Source: Trueperaceae bacterium | GTDB taxonomy: Bacteria > Deinococcota > Deinococci > Deinococcales > Trueperaceae | Direction: 5' to 3' | Assembly (NCBI GenBank): GCA_965213925.1 | Contig: OZ243927.1 | Span: 3,904,001 to 3,968,000 of the forward strand | Length of the DNA: 64,000 bases | Shown: piece after piece, positions 5,963 to 15,103 of the stretch | Layout: every line of letters begins with the position of its first letter | Numbering within the stretch: position 1 is the stretch's first letter | The notes under the pieces: model-generated | Seen by the model: only the letters and a program-made list of their open reading frames with translations | Database searches by the model: none | What the model was told of the DNA's origin: nothing | Program-made: the position numbers and the translations under genes

Positions 5963-6075
5963 GTACGCTATAGAACTCAGTTGACGGTGTAGTCAGTCGC
6001 AGGTACTACAAATCTGGGGTGTTTTCTACGGAGCAGCTCGCTCCCATCTCTTATACTTTCCCTCGAGGTGACGTC

Positions 6076-7137
6076 ATGCATAAGTTAGTCCGCCGCTCGG
6101 CGCGCAAAGTCGGGCAGGCTCCGGGGACGATGGTCTATACCGGCGACGCGCAAGATGAGGCGGTGCGCGTCGCCCTATTCACATATGGCGCTTCTGGAGC
6201 GCAGCACCGCGAAGCGCTAGAAGCGCGTGAGGCGCTCGATTTATTGGACGCAGAGCGGGTCAACTGGCTCAATGTAAGTGGCTTACACCGCCCTGAGGTC
6301 ATCCGCACGGTAGGCGAGCACATCGGTCTTCACCCGCTGACGCTAGAGGACATCGTCAGCACCGGGCAGCGCCCCAAAGTCGAGTTTTTCGACGCCTACG
6401 TCTTTATCGTGTTACGGATGCTCAACCTTCAAGGAGCGGGCACCATCCGCGACGAACAGGTCAGCATCATTGTCACGAAAGACGCTGTGTTTTCCTTTCA
6501 AGAGCGGCAAGGCGACGTGTTCGACCCTGTGCGCGCGCGCATCAGAGGCAATAAGGGAAGAATTTGCAAGTCCGGCTCCGACTACCTCGCGTATACGCTC
6601 TTAGACGCGGTGGTGGACTCCTACTTCACCGTGTTAGAAGGGGTGAGTGAGCGGCTCGAGGCGTTAGAGGAGACCCTTATCACCGAAGCCACCCCCGACA
6701 CCTTAAAAGAGATCAACACTTATAAACGCGAGATGCTCTTCTTGCGTAAAGCCGTCTGGCCGCTCCGCGAGGTGCTGAGCCTCTTGATGCGCGAGGACAG
6801 CCCCCTTATCAGCGCGCATACGCTCACGTACCTAAGAGACGTTTACGAACACACCGTGCAGGTCATCGACACGGTGGAGACCTTCCGCGACATCCTCACG
6901 GGGATGCTCGACGTGTACCTGTCCAGCGTCTCGAACCGCATGAACGAGGTGATGAAGGTCTTGACCATCATCGCCACGATTTTCATCCCGCTGACCTTCA
7001 TTGCGGGCGTATACGGTATGAACTTCATCTACATGCCCGAGCTGTCGTGGCGCTGGGGCTATCCGGCGGTGTGGCTCCTTATGCTCGCAGTCGCGCTCAG
7101 TCTTATCGTCTACTTTAGGCGGAAGCGTTGGCTATAG
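6076..7137 (+). CDS. corA: Magnesium/cobalt transporter CorA
   Basis: YGMNF signature, MPEL loop, two C-terminal TMs; ATG 6076 with GAGGTG SD. Confidence 0.95.
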   Translation: MHKLVRRSARKVGQAPGTMVYTGDAQDEAVRVALFTYGASGAQHREALEAREALDLLDAERVNWLNVSGLHRPEVIRTVGEHIGLHPLTLEDIVSTGQRPKVEFFDAYVFIVLRMLNLQGAGTIRDEQVSIIVTKDAVFSFQERQGDVFDPVRARIRGNKGRICKSGSDYLAYTLLDAVVDSYFTVLEGVSERLEALEETLITEATPDTLKEINTYKREMLFLRKAVWPLREVLSLLMREDSPLISAHTLTYLRDVYEHTVQVIDTVETFRDILTGMLDVYLSSVSNRMNEVMKVLTIIATIFIPLTFIAGVYGMNFIYMPELSWRWGYPAVWLLMLAVALSLIVYFRRKRWL

Positions 7138-7309
7138 CATTTCTCCTTAAGATCTCTTAACTTCTGTACTCTCGGTTCTCGAAAAGCAGTAGAAATTAGC
7201 GCATGGTTGTCCTACTAAAACATGCTATAACACAAAGTCAACCCTGCAGCTTACGCCTACCACGCTATCCGCGCTGTGGGATAGGTTATACTGTTCTTTA
7301 GGAGGATTC

Positions 7310-8239
7310 ATGAAAAAACTGCTTACGTTTCTATTAACATCGTCTTTGCTGTTGGTTAGCGGTCTCGCCCTCGCGCAAGACCCTGTTCGTGTTGGCTCCA
7401 AACAGTTTACCGAAAATGTCGTGTTGGCGAAAATCATCATCACGGCGTTGGAGAACGCGGACATCCCTACGACCGACCAGACGCCCTTAGGCGCGACGGA
7501 CGTGAACCGCTCGGCGCTCGTCAACGGCGAAATCGACGTTTACCCGGAGTACACGGGCACAGCAATCAGTAACTTCTTAATCAATGAAGGCGCGGACGTA
7601 CCTGAAGGTGCCTCGAGCGACGGCGAGCAGTCGTACGGAATCGTCAGCGAGTACGACCAGGAAAACAACAACTTGTGCTGGCTCGAGCCCGCCCCCGCGA
7701 ATAACACCTACGCCATCGCCGTCACCGAGTCGTTTGCCGAAGAGAACGGTTTAGAGACGCTCGCCGACTACGCCGAATACGTCAACAGTGGTGGCGAAGT
7801 CATGATGCCTGTCGGCGACGAGTTCGCGCAGCGCCCGGACGGTCTGCAAGCTTTCGAGGAGACGTACGGCTTCGACCTTACCCAAGACCAGCTCCTCGTT
7901 ATCGCTGGCGGTCAGCCCGCGCAAACCGAGCAGGCTCTAGCCGAAGGCGCGAACGGCGCGAACGCGGCGATGGCGTACGGCACGGACGGCGCACTCATGG
8001 CGTATAACTTCCGCGTGTTAGAAGACCCCGAGGGGGCACAGCCCGTCTTTCAGCCGACGCCCGTGTTCCGCTGCGGCGTGCTCGAGACCTATTCCAGCAT
8101 CCCCGAGGTCTTAAATCCCATCTTCGAAACGCTCGACAACGAAACGCTGCAAGAACTCAACGCTCGCGTAGACGTGGACGGCGAAAACCCCGAAGCGGTC
8201 GCGCAGAGCTTCCTAGAGGAAAACGGCTTTTTAGAGTAA
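7310..8239 (+). CDS. Osmoprotectant (glycine betaine/choline type) ABC substrate-binding protein, OsmF/YehZ-like, cluster 1
   Basis: Signal peptide; VGSKQFTE, DVYPEYTGT, PANNTYAIAV and MAYGTDG motifs. Confidence 0.9.
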   Translation: MKKLLTFLLTSSLLLVSGLALAQDPVRVGSKQFTENVVLAKIIITALENADIPTTDQTPLGATDVNRSALVNGEIDVYPEYTGTAISNFLINEGADVPEGASSDGEQSYGIVSEYDQENNNLCWLEPAPANNTYAIAVTESFAEENGLETLADYAEYVNSGGEVMMPVGDEFAQRPDGLQAFEETYGFDLTQDQLLVIAGGQPAQTEQALAEGANGANAAMAYGTDGALMAYNFRVLEDPEGAQPVFQPTPVFRCGVLETYSSIPEVLNPIFETLDNETLQELNARVDVDGENPEAVAQSFLEENGFLE

Positions 8240-8277
8240 GCGTTAAGACCCTCACTGCGTTTTCACTACTTCAACCT

Positions 8278-8303
8278 TGGGTCGAGTTTGCTCAACTCGA
8301 CCC
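8278..8303. other. Stem-loop after the substrate-binding gene (likely mRNA stabiliser or attenuator)
   Basis: GGGTCGAGTT-TGCTC-AACTCGACCC; an equivalent hairpin follows the second SBP gene. Confidence 0.55.
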
Positions 8304-8393
8304 TTCGTCTTGGGAAATAATCTTGAGTTTCGACGTTCAACTACGAAGTCAGCTCGGTAAAACGTACGGCGCGTATCCTTTGGAGGTGAAACT

Positions 8394-10016
8394 ATCGTCA
8401 ACAGAATTGCGATTCTCGGTGGACTCACGGCAGTTTTCGGCTTTTTCTTTTTGCCCCTCATTGAACTCAAGCCGAACCGCCTCGCTTCGGGGCTCAGCTT
8501 TCAGCTCTTGGAGCTAGAGGGCGACCTGCGCTACCCCTTTCTCTTCATCTTGGCACTCATCGCCATCGGCGCGGCGCTCTCGGCACGCTCCGCCACGCGC
8601 GGCTGGACGCTCGCCGGACTCGGCAACGCGCTCCTCTACTTGACGCTCTTTTTGCCTGCCGTCGCCGGGCAAAACCTCATCGACAACGCGAGCGACCTCT
8701 TGGGCGAAACCGTGCGCGTCAGCAACCCGCGCCTCTTGCCCTCGGGCGCGCTCGTCGTGGGGCTCATCGGCAGCTACGTCGTGCTCTACGGCGGGCTGCG
8801 CGACCTCATCGCGGCGGAGGCGTCGCGCTCGGCACGCTTCATCGCCGCGTGGGGCGGTGTGGCGCTCGTCGTGATCGGCTTTGTCACCGGACAGTTCGAC
8901 GTGTACTCGGTCATGGTCGAGCTTGAAGCGCGAGGCGAGCAGCTCGGGCAGCGCACGATCGAGCACATCATGTTCGTGGGTGTATCGCTCGTGATCGGCT
9001 TTGTCGTCGGCGTAGGGCTGGGGCTGTGGGCGCACCGCGACGAGCGCAGTTCGCCTATCGTCCTCTACGCGGTGGGGATTATCCAGACCATCCCGAGCCT
9101 GGCGCTTTTCGGCGTGCTGTTAGAGCCGTTGGCGCGGCTCGGCGGTCAGCGGGCGCTCAGCGTGGGGCTCTTCTTTATCGTCTCGTTGGCGGTAGCCGCG
9201 GCGCTCATCTTCGCCTACCGCCGCTTCGCGACTAGCCTCTCTGAGAATGTACGTCAAGTGTTTCTCATCCTAAGCGCGATCATCGCTGCTGTGCCACTCG
9301 CCCTCTTTACCGTCGTCTTAGCGAGCTTTCTCTTCCGTGCAAGCTTGGTGACGTTCACGTCCAATGCGGGTCTATTGCCGACGCTCCGCACGGTCATGCT
9401 CGTCTCGCTCATCGTCGGCTTCGCCCTCTGGATAGGCTTGCGTTACTTCAAGGGAACTGTGAAGCGCGTCGTTCGCTACGGCGCGTGGCTCGGTTACGGG
9501 GTGTTCGCGGTCGCGCTCCTCGTCGCGCTCGCCCAGGGCTCGAATCAGTTCTTAGGCGACGTCGGCGCAGGGCTCACCATGCGCAACCTCGGCGTGTCGG
9601 GCATCGGCACCGCGCCCGCCGTGATCGCGCTAACGCTCTACTCGCTCTTGCCGCTCGTCAGGAACACCTACGCGGGACTTAACAACGTGGACGCGGCGAT
9701 CGTCGATTCGGGGCGCGGCATGGGGATGAACGCGGGACAACGCTTTTTCCAGATCGAGTTGCCCATCGCCTTGCCCGTCATCATGGCAGGCGTGCGTAAC
9801 GCGGCCATCGCCTTAGTCGGCATCGGCACGGTGGCGACGATCATCGGCGCGGGCGGTTTGGGGGACTTTATCATCGGCGGGGTGGTGAACACGTCCATTG
9901 ACCAGATTCTTTTAGGTGCGGTGCCAGCGGTACTTTTAGCTGTGGCGTTGGATGCGGCGTTGCGGGGTTTGGAGAGGCTGATGGTGTCGCCGGGGATTCA
10001 GCAGATGCAGGATTGA
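8394..10016 (+). CDS. Osmoprotectant ABC permease, YehY-like, cluster 1; probable ATC start
   Basis: QTIPSLALFG, EAA-like DSGRGMGM and GAGGLG motifs. SD GGAGGTGA at 8382-8389 precedes in-frame ATC 8394; the ORF track starts at TTG 8451. Confidence 0.85.
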   Translation: MVNRIAILGGLTAVFGFFFLPLIELKPNRLASGLSFQLLELEGDLRYPFLFILALIAIGAALSARSATRGWTLAGLGNALLYLTLFLPAVAGQNLIDNASDLLGETVRVSNPRLLPSGALVVGLIGSYVVLYGGLRDLIAAEASRSARFIAAWGGVALVVIGFVTGQFDVYSVMVELEARGEQLGQRTIEHIMFVGVSLVIGFVVGVGLGLWAHRDERSSPIVLYAVGIIQTIPSLALFGVLLEPLARLGGQRALSVGLFFIVSLAVAAALIFAYRRFATSLSENVRQVFLILSAIIAAVPLALFTVVLASFLFRASLVTFTSNAGLLPTLRTVMLVSLIVGFALWIGLRYFKGTVKRVVRYGAWLGYGVFAVALLVALAQGSNQFLGDVGAGLTMRNLGVSGIGTAPAVIALTLYSLLPLVRNTYAGLNNVDAAIVDSGRGMGMNAGQRFFQIELPIALPVIMAGVRNAAIALVGIGTVATIIGAGGLGDFIIGGVVNTSIDQILLGAVPAVLLAVALDAALRGLERLMVSPGIQQMQD

Positions 10017-10226
10017 TAGCAGGTATCATCTGATGGATAGCAGGTATCATCTGGTCACAGACGCTCTTAGTGGATAAGAAAAGTGCCTAGCCCTTCAAAG
10101 ATGATATCTGCGGCTCCAAGCTCTCAGCAAAGGATCAAACAAGGTCTTGCAGCATGTTGCGAAGAAAACGTACCTTTTCAGTCCTTTGTCAGTCCCCCAC
10201 TTCTCACCCACAGAAAGTGAGACCCT

Positions 10227-11405
10227 ATGATTGAATTCGATAACGTCGTCAAGCAGTACCCGAACGGCTTCAAAGCGGTCGACGGTCTGAGCGTCACCGT
10301 GCCCGAAGGCGAAATCTGCGTTTTCATCGGTCCTTCGGGCTGCGGCAAGACCACGACCATGCGCATGGTCAACCGCCTCATCCCCATTACGGGCGGGCGC
10401 ATCAACATAGAAGGGCGCGATAACCGCGACATCCCGGCGGAAGAGCTGCGGCGCAAGATCGGCTACGCCATCCAGCAGATCGGGCTCTTCCCACACATGA
10501 CGATCTTCGACAACGTCGCGGTGGTGCCGCGCCTGCTGAACTGGGAGGAGGACCGCATCGCGAAGCGCGTGGACAGGCTTCTGGGACTCGTCGGCTTGGA
10601 CCCCGACGTGAACCGCGACAAGTTTCCGCGTCAGCTTTCGGGCGGTCAGCAGCAGCGCGTCGGCGTGGCGCGGGCGCTCGGAGCCGACCCGCCTATCATG
10701 CTCATGGACGAGCCTTTTGGCGCGGTGGACCCCATTACCAGGGAGGTTTTGCAAGAAGAGTTTTTGCAGATTCAAAAGGAGATCAGCAAAACCATCATCT
10801 TCGTCACGCACGATATCGACGAGGCGATCAAGATGGGCGACCGCATCGCGATTTTGCGCGAGGGTAAGCTCGTCCAGTTTGACACGCCCGATACCCTCTT
10901 AGCGCACCCCAAAAACCACTTCGTGCGCGATTTCGTCGGGGCGGACCGGCAGCTCAAGCGGCTCGGCTTGGTGCGCGTCCACGAGATTATGGACACCGAC
11001 CCGCCCGTGGTCCAGTTCGAGGGCAAGGCAGAGGACGCCCTCCGCGCAATCGAGCAGCGCGAGGTGCGCAACGCCTTCGTCATCGACCGTGACGGCAAGC
11101 TCAAAGGGTGGGTAGACAGAAAAGCCATCGAGCGGAGCGACTCTCTGTTAGAGGCGATGTACGAGGCGGACTACTGGGATATCTCTGTAAAGGAGACCGC
11201 GACCGTGCGTGACGCGCTCTCGGCAATGGTCACGCGCGGCTTCAAGGTGACGCCCGTGGTGGATAGCGACGGACTTTTGACTGGCTCGATCACGCTCAAA
11301 GCGCTGCAAGAACTCGTCGAGCGCAGCGACCCTGAGCAGCAAGCTGAGCGTTCGTCCAGGGACCGCTCGGCTAAAGAACAGACAGAACAAGAGGTCAGCG
11401 CGTGA
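10227..11405 (+). CDS. Osmoprotectant ABC ATP-binding protein with CBS pair, cluster 1
   Basis: Walker A GPSGCGKT, LSGGQQQR, MDEPFGAVDP; C-terminal CBS domains. Confidence 0.92.
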   Translation: MIEFDNVVKQYPNGFKAVDGLSVTVPEGEICVFIGPSGCGKTTTMRMVNRLIPITGGRINIEGRDNRDIPAEELRRKIGYAIQQIGLFPHMTIFDNVAVVPRLLNWEEDRIAKRVDRLLGLVGLDPDVNRDKFPRQLSGGQQQRVGVARALGADPPIMLMDEPFGAVDPITREVLQEEFLQIQKEISKTIIFVTHDIDEAIKMGDRIAILREGKLVQFDTPDTLLAHPKNHFVRDFVGADRQLKRLGLVRVHEIMDTDPPVVQFEGKAEDALRAIEQREVRNAFVIDRDGKLKGWVDRKAIERSDSLLEAMYEADYWDISVKETATVRDALSAMVTRGFKVTPVVDSDGLLTGSITLKALQELVERSDPEQQAERSSRDRSAKEQTEQEVSA

Positions 11406-12442
11406 CGGCGCGTTTAGAACGCAACGTTCCCTTCTTGGTGTCGGGCGCAGCTTTAGCCTGGTTGGGGTTTGCGCTCTTCTTATTCATCCTGAGCTTCATC
11501 TCGTTCGACCTTAAAAATTTGCCGGAAGAGACGGGCACGCTCGTGCCGACCTTGTGGCTGCCGACGCTAGGCGTCAGCGCCACGACGATCATCCGCGTGG
11601 ACGCTTTCGACACGGGCATCAACCTGATCCCCTTTCTCGTGCTCTTCGCGCTCGTCGAATGGGGGCTCGCGTACCTCTACCGTGACCGCGACGAGAAGCT
11701 GGTGCGCCCACTTTTTAGAACGGCGGCGATCTTTCTTACTATTTGGTCGTTCTTCGGACACTTGCCGCTCTGGGACGTTTTTCTCAGTTGGCTCTTTCCA
11801 AATAGCCCGCGCGTCCTCTACCCGCAAGGGAGCGTGATCGGGCTGACTGCCGATCACCTGGAACTCGTCATTCTCTCCTCGGTCATTACGGTGAGCGTCG
11901 GGCTGGCGCTGGGCATTCTGGTGACGAGGGATCAGTTCCGCGAGTTTTTGCCGCTCGTGAGCGACTTCGTGAACGCCGGGCAGACGCTGCCAACGCTGGC
12001 GATTGTCGCAATTATGGTGCCGGTTATCGGTTTGGGTTTTTGGCCCGCCATCGTCGCGCTTATCCTCTACGGCCTCCTGCCCGTCGTGCGCAACACGATT
12101 GCAGGCTTAGAGGCGGTCAACGACTTCATGATCGACTCGGCGCGAGGGATGGGCATGACTGCCAGCCAAATCCTCTGGCAGATCGAGCTGCCCAACGCAA
12201 GTAGCATCATCCTGGCAGGCATTCGCACGAGCGTCGTGATCAATATCGGCACGGCGGCGCTGGGTGCGTACGCGGGCGCGAGCGGGTTGGGTCGCCCGAT
12301 TGCCGGGGGGCTTTCGCAAAACATCGTCCCTTACGTGATTTACGGCGCACTGCCCGCCGCGATGCTCGCCATTTTAGTCGATTACGTCTTGGAACGGGTA
12401 GAGTTTGTTTTGACGCCTAAAGGGTTGCAGGTGGAGAGTTAG
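11402..12442 (+). CDS. Osmoprotectant ABC permease, YehW-like, cluster 1
   Basis: GQTLPTLA and DSARGMGM motifs; GTGA overlap with the ATPase gene. Confidence 0.9.
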   Translation: MTARLERNVPFLVSGAALAWLGFALFLFILSFISFDLKNLPEETGTLVPTLWLPTLGVSATTIIRVDAFDTGINLIPFLVLFALVEWGLAYLYRDRDEKLVRPLFRTAAIFLTIWSFFGHLPLWDVFLSWLFPNSPRVLYPQGSVIGLTADHLELVILSSVITVSVGLALGILVTRDQFREFLPLVSDFVNAGQTLPTLAIVAIMVPVIGLGFWPAIVALILYGLLPVVRNTIAGLEAVNDFMIDSARGMGMTASQILWQIELPNASSIILAGIRTSVVINIGTAALGAYAGASGLGRPIAGGLSQNIVPYVIYGALPAAMLAILVDYVLERVEFVLTPKGLQVES

Positions 12443-12605: not shown

Positions 12606-12637
12606 AAAAAAGCCGCCACATATGTGGCGGCTTTTTT
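12606..12637. terminator. Bidirectional intrinsic terminator
   Basis: AAAAAAGCCGCCAC-ATAT-GTGGCGGCTTTTTT between the convergent ABC operon and small peptide gene. Confidence 0.85.
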
Positions 12638-12650
12638 ACGGATAAGAAAA

Positions 12651-12776
12651 TTACCGGTTCACTCTAAAAATCTTCGTTGTAGGTACGTCGTTCTTGACGC
12701 TTTTGCCAGCCGACGCTGCACCGAAAAGGCTGAAGGAAAGGGCAACGACCAAGACTTTGATAGCAACTTTTTTCAT
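12651..12776 (-). CDS. 41-aa secreted peptide (Sec signal plus ~18-aa cationic mature peptide)
   Basis: Not in ORF track. SD GGGAGGAG; MKKVAIKVLVVALSFSLFGAASA|GKSVKNDVPTTKIFRVNR; ASA signal peptidase site; terminator directly after the stop. Confidence 0.8.
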   Translation of the reverse strand: MKKVAIKVLVVALSFSLFGAASAGKSVKNDVPTTKIFRVNR

Positions 12777-12834
12777 AGCATCTCCTCCCAGAGACTTCGC
12801 TTAAAGCGAAAGTGAGTTGTTCCGGGAAGAGTTC

Positions 12835-12905
12835 CCGGCCGGTTGCGCTACTAGCTCCGTCTACCCTAAGCGCCCAATTACAGGATAGAGATCATCGCTT
12901 CCGTG
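12835..12905 (-). ncRNA. Cyclic di-GMP-II riboswitch
   Basis: Minus strand reads GGAAGCGATGAT-CTCTATCCTG-TAATTGGGCGCTT-AGGGTAGA-CGGAGCTAGTAGCGCAACCGGCC, matching the class II pattern GGAA..ATGA..TGGGCRCTT..GAGYTAGTAGYGCAACCGRCC including the pseudoknot pairing (GCGC/GCGC). Confidence 0.88.
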
Positions 12906-12994
12906 GAGGCTTTTGCGCCTCGAGATACAATGTAGCATTCATATAGTTAAACTTGCGAGAAGGTTTTTACAAGGGGTTTAGGTAGTGGCGCAGC

Positions 12995-13960
12995 TTACGC
13001 GGCGTTAGGTTGCTCACTGAGCCTACTCAGCGCTGAGATAAAGGCGGACACGACCTCTTTAGGATAATGAAGCCCAGCGTACTGCTTTAACTCACCGAAC
13101 GCTTGCTCGGGGCTTAGGGCCCGGCGGTAAGGTCGATCTGTGGTCATCGCGTCATACGTATCCGCCACAGCCACAACCGAGGACTCGATCAAGATGTCGT
13201 CGCCCGACAGTCCATAGGGGTAGCCCGACCCGTCACGGCGCTCATGGTGCTGCTCGACAATTGCGCCCGCCTCTTTAAGGTAGGTCGTTTCTAACAGCTC
13301 GCGCCCGAAGGTCGGGTGCTGTTTGACAATATGCCACTCCGGAGCGCTCAGCGCGGAGGGTTTTTGTAGGATGTCGAGTGGCACCTTGACCTTGCCCACG
13401 TCGTGCAAGTACGCGCCGTAGTCGAGGAGGTAAAGTCTATCGGGGGGCAAACCCAGCTCTTGCCCGGTCGCGTAGGAGAGCGTCTGCAAGCGGCGGCAGT
13501 GCCCGGCGGTGTAGCCGTCGCGCAGTTCGACCTCGACCGCTAGGCGCATCAACTCGTCGAGTTCTTGGCTGAGGGTATGAAAGATGGGCTTCGTGGTGAA
13601 GTATAAAAAGCGCACTTCGGAGAGCGCTGAGAGCGTGCACGCCTCGTCGAGTCCAGAGGTGACGATATAGTCACCCGTGCCCAGGGTCGACGCGCCGTAG
13701 CGCAAGGTACCCGCTAAGATATAGTACGTTTCGGTCGCGTCCCCTGAAGAGATGAGCGTCATGCGCTCGCCTTGCCTGAGAGTTCCCTCGAGTACCTCGG
13801 TGCCTTGTCCGGCGACAAGTAGCCGCACGTCAACCGCTTTCGAGGCGACCCTCTCTAAACTTTCACCCCGCTTATGAAAGCGTAAACCTAGGGGCGCAGC
13901 GTCTTTCACCGCATTGTCCAACTCTGAGCGTTCATCACACATATTCGCTAAGTATGGCAC
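12995..13960 (-). CDS. HD-GYP cyclic-dinucleotide phosphodiesterase with an N-terminal cupin-like domain
   Basis: RDGYTAGH, LHDVGK, HHERRDGSGYP and VADTYDAMT..RPYR motifs; start uncertain. Confidence 0.9.
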   Translation of the reverse strand: MPYLANMCDERSELDNAVKDAAPLGLRFHKRGESLERVASKAVDVRLLVAGQGTEVLEGTLRQGERMTLISSGDATETYYILAGTLRYGASTLGTGDYIVTSGLDEACTLSALSEVRFLYFTTKPIFHTLSQELDELMRLAVEVELRDGYTAGHCRRLQTLSYATGQELGLPPDRLYLLDYGAYLHDVGKVKVPLDILQKPSALSAPEWHIVKQHPTFGRELLETTYLKEAGAIVEQHHERRDGSGYPYGLSGDDILIESSVVAVADTYDAMTTDRPYRRALSPEQAFGELKQYAGLHYPKEVVSAFISALSRLSEQPNAA

Positions 13961-14087: not shown

Positions 14088-14807
14088 TTACATATGATGT
14101 CCACCGTTGATGCTCAGCACCGTGCCCGTCACGTAGCTCGCCCGTGGCGAGAGCAAGTAAGCCACGCCCCACGCGATTTCGTCCGGCTGACCGAAGCGCT
14201 TAAAGGGAATTTCGGAAGTGATTCGGTCCTTAACCTTGTCGGGCACGCCCTCTAACATGTTCGTCTCGATAAAGCCCGGCGCGACGACGTTCGTGCGAAC
14301 CTTGTTCTTCGCGCCCTCGCGCGCGAGCGATTTACCGAAGCCCATCAAGGCGGCTTTGGCGGCGGCGTAGTTAGCTTGCCCCATGTTGCCGCGCTCGCCC
14401 ACGATGGACGAAATGAGCACGATCGAGCCCTCGCCGTGCTCGTTCATCTTGGACATCACCGGACGCACCGTGTTGTAGACGCCTGTCAGGTTCGTCTCGA
14501 TAACGGTGTTCCACTGCTCCAAATCCGACTTGACGAACAGTCCGTCCTTGGTAATGCCCGCGTTCGCCACCACGCCGTAGATCGGTCCGAGTTCTTGTTC
14601 GGTGCGCTCGGCGGCCTCTTTCATCGCCGCTTCGTCGCGCACGTCCGCCTGGATCGCTAAGGAGCCGTGCTCGCCCTCGCTCGTGCGGTAGGTATACGCC
14701 ACCTTCGCGCCCGAGTCTTCCAAGAGGTCGACGATCGCTGAGCCGATGCCCTTGTTGCCGCCCGTGACCAAAATGACCTTGTCCTCTAAACCGAGTGTCG
14801 CCGCCAC
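14088..14807 (-). CDS. SDR: acetoacetyl-CoA / 3-oxoacyl-ACP reductase, PhaB-like
   Basis: TGGNKGIG, NAGITKD, YAAAK; LGLEDKVILVTGG...GPIYGVVANAG...INGGHH resembles cyanobacterial PhaB. Confidence 0.85.
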   Translation of the reverse strand: MAATLGLEDKVILVTGGNKGIGSAIVDLLEDSGAKVAYTYRTSEGEHGSLAIQADVRDEAAMKEAAERTEQELGPIYGVVANAGITKDGLFVKSDLEQWNTVIETNLTGVYNTVRPVMSKMNEHGEGSIVLISSIVGERGNMGQANYAAAKAALMGFGKSLAREGAKNKVRTNVVAPGFIETNMLEGVPDKVKDRITSEIPFKRFGQPDEIAWGVAYLLSPRASYVTGTVLSINGGHHM

Positions 14808-15103
14808 AAAACCACCCACCTATCTTGTTGATTTGCCACACTATACAGGTCAGGTGAGAGGAGCACAAGGGTAGGAAGAGGTCGTACTAAAAATCGGTTG
14901 AGCAGAAGTTATCTTCGCTCGACTGTCATCCTGTTCGTTTCGTGGAGCCTTGCAAATGCGAAGCCTCGCTGCGTTCGCCTTCTCCTCTAGCCGAGCCTGG
15001 AAGGGTAACGAGGAAGTATCGGGCAAACCTCAGCTCACCGTGTCGGGAAGCTCGAGCAGGATAGAACTGAGCAGCGCGTAGCATATGCGCGCTTTTCGCT
15101 AGG

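Follow-up and report, generated by a model that had tools for sequence, protein, structure and literature searches.

A conserved pairing of cupin-HD-GYP proteins with C-terminal-tail peptides in Trueperaceae and Bacillota suggests a peptide signalling module acting on c-di-GMP

The stretch of DNA analysed here, a 64,000-nt window of a Trueperaceae genome, holds a class II c-di-GMP riboswitch in front of a gene for a 41-aa secreted peptide, next to a gene for an HD-GYP protein, a member of the class of enzymes that degrade c-di-GMP. What would a peptide under c-di-GMP control be doing beside an enzyme predicted to remove c-di-GMP? The first-pass annotation of this window had proposed a pheromone acting on the adjacent phosphodiesterase or, failing that, a matrix or antimicrobial peptide. 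The reading we prefer, with a probability of roughly 0.6, is a two-gene module in which the processed tail of the peptide would be re-imported and would regulate the phosphodiesterase, probably via its cupin domain, a logic like that of Rap-Phr with an unrelated receptor.

All features of the cassette lie on the minus strand of the window. The cupin-HD-GYP gene, encoding the candidate peptide receptor, is an intact 321-aa frame (ORF 12995..13960) with a Pfam HD_5 match (E 9.8e-30) and a weak cupin match. Judged by the starts of its orthologues, translation probably begins at ATG 13942 or TTG 13921, and a possible extended –10 read from the sequence at 13951..13959, 8 nt 5′ of ATG 13942, would make the transcript near-leaderless. 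The class II aptamer at 12828..12911 (Rfam RF01786, 69.1 bits against a gathering score of 53.5, E 2.1e-13) is the only Rfam match listed for the window. Its end overlaps a switching element at 12821..12838, where a hairpin (12822-12838) formed with the 3′ strand of P1 of the aptamer overlaps an anti-Shine–Dalgarno (anti-SD) strand (12821-12831). Then come a spacer hairpin at 12796..12810, placed by folding within the anti-SD/SD helix, the strong SD sequence GGGAGGAG at 12782..12789 and the 41-aa propeptide ORF at 12651..12776. A terminator scan gave an intrinsic terminator of 14 pairs at 12606..12637, probably bidirectional, with an ABC operon converging on it. The first-pass annotation had named the aptamer, the enzyme gene, the two small hairpins, the SD, the ORF and the strong terminator, and each of them is present, both hairpins at the places given. 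Outside the module, the window encodes a CorA-like transporter and the converging osmoprotectant-type ABC operon at 6019-12442 (read by eye, the permease by Pfam) and, upstream of the enzyme gene, a short-chain dehydrogenase at 14088-14819.

These parts had been taken as a single minus-strand run with a possible extended –10 near 12930. The parts stand, but one transcript for all of them does not. The extended –10 at 12929..12937 was not called by a consensus promoter scanner; yet in an alignment of 10 leaders, two of which begin downstream of this position, a TAnnnT hexamer stands at the –10 place in all eight that reach it, with the TG in six of the eight. A 5′ hairpin at the predicted transcript start (12906..12921) is likewise predicted in 8/8 leaders covering that position. 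The aligned hexamer implies that riboswitch and peptide gene form a transcript of their own, with the enzyme gene outside riboswitch control, so that the riboswitch is predicted to control the peptide gene only. Further upstream, an element TGTAA-N6-TCTCG (12956..12971, centre near –41.5), which resembles a CRP/FNR-family site, has a similar counterpart in orthologous leaders and, as TGTGA, in genus g24. We also considered a single operon with the upstream dehydrogenase gene and rejected it: no copy of that gene turned up in 7-kb regions of two relatives (G001 and G002), where the converging ABC genes are syntenic.

The propeptide consists of a Sec-type signal (residues 1-23, with an Ala-x-Ala end, by eye and hydropathy filter), a spacer and a conserved C-terminal tail ending FRVNR. 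In three genomes of the same genus the last four residues are identical and two of their codons, as well as the stop codon, differ, which points to protein-level constraint on the ORF and its tail. The signal-plus-tail pattern is matched by only 4 of the 314,056 stop-to-stop frames of the genome, three of which belong to this family. The first-pass annotation had taken the predicted mature 18-mer, cationic with a net charge of about +4, as the active unit; conservation is confined to the C-terminal tail, and activity probably resides in the final 5-11 residues. A Pro stands five residues before the Phe of the tail, and, as proline generally blocks aminopeptidases, it may stop trimming one residue before it. 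A complex prediction for the enzyme dimer with peptide residues 12-41 (score 0.18, mark 0.32) counts neither for nor against binding.

The enzyme has a cupin at about residues 20-125, a linker helix and an HD-GYP domain at about 145-312. Its AlphaFold model (mean pLDDT 87.8) shows a cupin barrel joined by a long helix to an HD-GYP domain, and superposes on PmGH (4MCW) with Z 23.6 and rmsd 2.4 over 187 residues, and on cupins with Z 10-13. Within the part of PMC12943098 that supplied our PmGH residue list, H189, H221, D222, K225, H250, H276, H277, D305, the GYP motif, I294 and R314 all have direct equivalents, K317 is replaced by Arg, and Tyr150 aligns with E185. On that list, the Tyr in place of Glu185, the residue diagnostic of the trinuclear type, points to a bimetal type. 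With the metal His/Asp set, the GYP and the c-di-GMP-recognising Arg-x-x-Arg all kept, the protein is by sequence a member of the phosphodiesterase family. The cupin is different. Metal-dependent cupins hold their metal with a His-x-His...Glu motif and a His from a second motif, whereas the window protein has Arg-Met-Thr at the metal positions, and no His is among the four commonest residues there in 71 diverse representatives; we therefore class the domain as a predicted metal-free cupin. Two glutamates, E55 (66/71 representatives) and E77 (69/71), would suit a free amino group or a basic side chain. Pfam gave no TPR match, and cupin and HD domain account for the whole modelled chain. A profile of the cupin collects 258 clusters at 50% identity; it had no usable Atlas match, a blank that is no proof of novelty. 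The 41 representatives picked for unusual length and scanned comprise 28 proteins with an HD domain, 12 short pieces and a single repeat protein; a GGDEF fusion is present in 12 (one below cut-off). Receptors of about 960 aa are P0014, a TPR-GGDEF-cupin-HD-GYP fusion, and those of L117 and L126, both of which keep a downstream precursor ending FRFNR.

The first-pass proposal depended on a conserved linkage of peptide and HD-GYP genes in relatives, and the linkage that we found reaches far wider than proposed, through Trueperaceae and into Bacillota. Related genomes are not independent samples in any of the following counts. Searched with the window protein at E 1e-60, 12 of 36 other genomes of the family carry a member, as against 0/24 genomes of other families of the order. 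Among 401 Bacilli genomes, drawn evenly and including two already known to be positive, 43 have a receptor (47 matches), and on reading all 47 loci we found that 43 adjoin an exported precursor and four do not. A filter for small signal-bearing ORFs within 700 nt downstream was passed by 31 of 56 receptor loci outside Bacillota and by 14 of 17 within that phylum (six truncated loci left out), against a background of 72 of 2484 long ORFs of this genome. Since partners in Bacilli are mostly longer and encoded upstream, no more than 10 of the first 30 loci of that class passed this strict downstream filter. A rule requiring a signal and a [VILT]DP tail is satisfied at 70 of 120 distinct receptor loci (background 30/2484), and a wider tail list, compiled after the data were seen, at 102/120 (background 308/2484, 12.4%). 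Correction by hand, with one false and one doubtful case removed and six added, gave 106/120 loci with a partner; the 14 without a clear one include one of the four paralogues of this genome and, within its genus, a clade of four loci.

In the reciprocal search, over 128 genomes of the family, 30 of 31 matches to the long-precursor profile adjoin a receptor and the remaining one lies at a contig end; in Bacilli, five of six do so, the sixth being a weak partial match. The profiles were built from receptor-side partners, so the informative part of this result is the absence of orphan copies. The short-peptide profile returned 15 full-length matches, all its own members, and 12 to the signal only. 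On these data the conserved unit is, by its gene arrangement, the enzyme-peptide pair, present in two phyla (Deinococcota and Bacillota).

The partners themselves are diverse. Precursors range from 41 to 243 aa and have only the C-terminal tail in common, usually Asp-Pro followed by 4-7 residues. They fall into three classes: propeptides of 41-65 aa, proteins of about 100 aa with a small folded domain (in one model pLDDT 83.5, with 60 for the last six residues) and proteins of 120-243 aa. Many of the long precursors have a folded domain and some a lipoprotein box. Where long and short partners share a locus (L033, L035 and L128), they carry the same tail. The tail is repeated at L028, L030, L033, L058 and L113, and in several propeptides units of 6 or 12 residues recur, as many as seven times. 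At five loci the only partners are ORFs of 9-14 codons with no signal peptide; if translated, such peptides would remain inside the cell, the strongest indirect sign that the target is probably the cytoplasmic neighbour. In genus g24 both forms occur in the same place behind the same leader, a 41-aa form in G025 and, in G149-G151, an ORF of 14 codons that lacks a hydrophobic core but retains the first residues and the tail. Facing the two-cupin receptors of L137 and L138 are arrays of four and two ORFs, each of 9-10 codons, with a strong SD and a tail led by Pro. On a quick, midpoint-rooted tree of 109 receptors (11 of the 120 loci left out), short partners are scattered, with three or more separate places in the Bacillota part and several in Trueperaceae.

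Searches with the long precursor gave no Pfam family (11/11) and no NCBIfam family near cut-off; no solved fold exceeded Z 3.0, and no Atlas cluster was convincing, blanks which are no proof of novelty. Its conserved Gln-Glu-x-x-His might, speculatively, serve self-cleavage at Asp-Pro. An enzyme-precursor fusion in G125 was examined as a Rosetta stone and set aside: its HD-GYP domain is cut short and its tail decayed, so that it looks like a deletion. The Bacillaceae members of the long-precursor family (P0158-P0270) are labelled 8-amino-7-oxononanoate synthase or MarR regulator in databases, which looks like propagated mislabelling. Reading by eye also showed a peptide-ABC-permease-like ORF directly upstream of the receptor at two Paenibacillaceae loci (L067 and L069), and a binding-protein-like gene divergent from the receptor at L127 and L120.

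The riboswitch has a narrower distribution. Seven orthologous loci, from three genera, have the aptamer ahead of the peptide; four relatives score above the cut-off and two below it on account of insertions. The aptamer also precedes one other short partner (L020). A motif search, as distinct from a covariance search, found no aptamer before Bacillota partners. The riboswitch is best read as an add-on of some Trueperaceae lineages, as judged from gene order, with the enzyme-peptide pair as the conserved unit. In the window, a 7-bp hairpin on the P1 3′ strand (–22.3 kcal/mol) and an 11-bp anti-SD helix (–24.7 kcal/mol) are competing folds, of which the hairpin is predicted to form as long as the SD is still to be transcribed; the anti-SD helix is predicted in G001 and G002 too. 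When the P1 strand is withheld in folding, openness of the SD falls in seven of nine leaders and is unchanged in two, which suggests that c-di-GMP turns peptide translation off. At equilibrium the SD of the window is predicted to be paired in both ligand states (unpaired 0.06 vs 0.0), so this OFF reading requires kinetic folding. By eye, G005 and G071 appear to use a terminator instead of SD sequestration. In genus g24, four leaders without the aptamer (L127, L118, L120 and L015) have a conserved hairpin with a conserved loop before the peptide ORF; it has no Rfam match, is related to the 5′ hairpin at the transcript start of the window leader, and is possibly an undescribed RNA element in the place of the riboswitch. 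The Rfam search also missed a class II-like 3′ half with a long insertion at G000:C1:305050-305170, and similar long insertions occur in the aptamers of L144, L025 and L042.

Elsewhere in this genome there are 11 class II matches, 8 of them above cut-off, and by eye most class II riboswitches precede exported proteins. The genome has four cupin-HD-GYP genes and 13 Opp-type (family-5) binding proteins. Besides the receptor of the window, one paralogue comes with a degenerate aptamer and with two peptides whose tail is that of the window peptide, a third has a 106-aa lipoprotein-like partner, and the fourth has no clear partner. The following are recorded as observations in their own right. A direct repeat of 11-nt period, TCTKACA-N4-TCTKACA, which we take to be like an OmpR/PhoB-type box, occurs in 12 places in G000:C1 (e.g. 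3020999, 3669612 and 3986066), three of them just upstream of class II riboswitches. At G000:C1:1136885-1137001 (+) a 38-aa secreted-peptide ORF, conserved in G001 and G002 with a variable tail, converges on an 816-aa gene that is itself divergent from the partner-less paralogue, possibly a separate peptide-receptor pair. At G000:C1:1289861-1289989 (–) there is a 42-aa secreted-peptide ORF, and divergent from it lie a lipoprotein-like gene and the gene of a 680-aa protein matching HD-GYP. Three class II aptamers, two in tandem, lie within 1.5 kb at G000:C1:3694670-3696087 (–), and riboswitch, promoter and downstream gene are identical at G000:C1:3021070 and 3986137, by recent duplication or as an assembly repeat.

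Does the tail vary together with the receptor? Among 72 pairs, covariation is strongest between position 59 of the cupin and the first residue of the tail (z 7.0, the runner-up having 4.9), with Gly-Phe in 15, His-Pro in 20 and Gln-Leu/Ile in 20. Position 59 lies four residues after E55 on the same predicted strand. The top 40 pairs involve 23 cupin columns, where about 14 would be expected, and 17 HD-domain or linker columns. Similarity of tails follows the cupin little better than it follows the HD-GYP domain (partial rho 0.27 vs 0.21), so specificity is not localised by this comparison. Three dominant clades confound the covariation, and we treat position 59 as a lead only.

In the mechanism that we propose, the propeptide would be exported by Sec and then trimmed, leaving FRVNR, or possibly up to an 11-mer starting one residue before the conserved Pro, as the active tail. 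An oligopeptide permease would re-import the tail. Its binding to the cupin-HD-GYP protein in the cytoplasm, for which the metal-free barrel of the cupin is the likeliest site, would then change c-di-GMP hydrolysis. In this lineage, c-di-GMP would stabilise P1, free the anti-SD strand and shut peptide translation, closing a feedback loop. Whether the peptide would activate the enzyme (positive feedback, autoinduction) or inhibit it (a homeostat) we consider about an even choice. The earlier idea of a pheromone acting on the neighbouring phosphodiesterase thus gains from the covariance-model match and the conserved linkage, and loses the 18-mer as its probable active unit and the riboswitch as its conserved part. 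Some observations sit awkwardly with the preferred reading: 14 of the 120 loci have no clear partner, a folded domain or lipoprotein box would be superfluous for a mere pheromone carrier, and at equilibrium the SD of the window is predicted closed with or without ligand.

Other explanations share parts of this evidence. The tail might act on the adjacent enzyme through the HD-GYP domain or the dimer helix, leaving the cupin to sense an amine, an amino acid or some other unrelated small molecule. Nearly half of the top 40 covarying pairs fall in HD-domain and linker columns, and the two conserved glutamates would suit any cationic ligand, but the pairing follows the cupin-bearing subfamily, and the strongest covariation and the larger share of the top pairs are in the cupin, clade structure confounding both; we regard this explanation as unlikely, at about one chance in eight. 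Much the same weight goes to an exported, c-di-GMP-controlled signal or surface factor that is read by another receptor, such as a membrane kinase or cyclase, with the enzyme as a co-inherited member of the pathway. Signal-less partners of 9-14 codons cannot use Sec, and no third conserved gene was noticed in the loci read, although neighbours were read non-systematically; what speaks for such a receptor are the lipoprotein-type and folded long forms, which point to an extracellular job, and the exported proteins behind most other class II riboswitches of this genome.

Two further explanations are considerably less probable. In ribosomal peptide natural-product clusters, precursors typically have a leader and a conserved core, sometimes repeated, and are tightly linked to their enzymes, and the same features here would fit an enzyme and its substrate, with the cupin or HD domain modifying the C-terminal core. 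A cupin lacking metal ligands, an HD domain that keeps GYP and the c-di-GMP Arg-x-x-Arg, the GGDEF fusions and a peptide gene under a c-di-GMP riboswitch all tell against this, and we think it improbable. Slightly more improbable still is the matrix or antimicrobial peptide of the first-pass annotation, under c-di-GMP control and beside the phosphodiesterase for co-regulation only. The cationic 18-mer of the window invites it, but partners elsewhere are neutral or acidic, long or signal-less, with only the 5-7 terminal residues conserved, and the predicted OFF switching by c-di-GMP speaks against a matrix role.

How does the preferred module of re-imported tail and phosphodiesterase relate to known systems? 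In the RRNPP(A) systems, above all Rap-Phr, a propeptide gene with a Sec signal and a 5-10-residue active unit, usually C-terminal, stands beside its cytoplasmic partner, and duplications or repeated pheromone units have been described (PMC11343458). The cassettes reported here share with Rap-Phr the propeptide gene directly beside the gene of a cytoplasmic partner and the Sec signal (by hydropathy filter) and share with RRNPP a short C-terminal unit, sometimes in tandem repeats (here by sequence pattern), and a partner that need not be a transcription factor. They differ in that no TPR domain is present, the candidate sensor is a cupin and the output a c-di-GMP phosphodiesterase, in that they also occur in Deinococcota, and in having long precursors with an unclassified folded domain as well as signal-less minimal versions. 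RRNPP receptors bind their peptides with a TPR-type helical domain, and on its modelled domains the cassette falls outside that family. PmGH has the same fold (Z 23.6) and catalytic residue set as the window enzyme; unlike PmGH, the enzyme has Tyr for E185, an N-terminal cupin where PmGH has a GAF domain, and a dedicated peptide partner gene. RpfG and RpfR place c-di-GMP under quorum sensing by DSF, a fatty acid for which the sensor is a kinase-REC relay or a PAS domain. The proposed mechanism would likewise lead from a cell-cell signal to c-di-GMP breakdown, with a gene-encoded peptide, not a fatty acid, as the signal. The riboswitch is a full-length RF01786 match above the gathering score, but unlike the usual c-di-GMP-II riboswitch it would control a propeptide that is presumed to target a remover of the very ligand the switch senses, and several orthologues with long insertions fall below threshold.

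No description of the pairing was found in searches of open-access full texts, and its gene arrangement suggests a form of peptide signalling that is so far undescribed. A wider proposal, which we hold at slightly under even odds, is a hitherto unrecognised cross-phylum class of peptide signalling in which the cupin is the receptor for a short X-Pro-capped C-terminal peptide and directly gates a c-di-GMP phosphodiesterase; the signal would be shared when exported, tethered when a lipoprotein and private when encoded by signal-less 9-14-codon ORFs, with riboswitch feedback in Trueperaceae. To our knowledge, the cytoplasmic peptide-pheromone receptors of Bacillota are those of RRNPP, acting on transcription or response regulators. 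If the proposal is true, the fusion of a cupin receptor with a c-di-GMP phosphodiesterase would count as an independent invention, linking population sensing to the messenger that decides between motile and biofilm life, and peptide signalling would extend to Deinococcota. The pairing also offers a candidate ligand for an orphan sensor domain (the 258 cupin clusters) and a proposed role for a small exported protein family now mislabelled in databases. With culturable Bacillus and Paenibacillus relatives at hand, one soluble enzyme and a few synthetic peptides would make for a cheap test of whether such peptides gate c-di-GMP breakdown.
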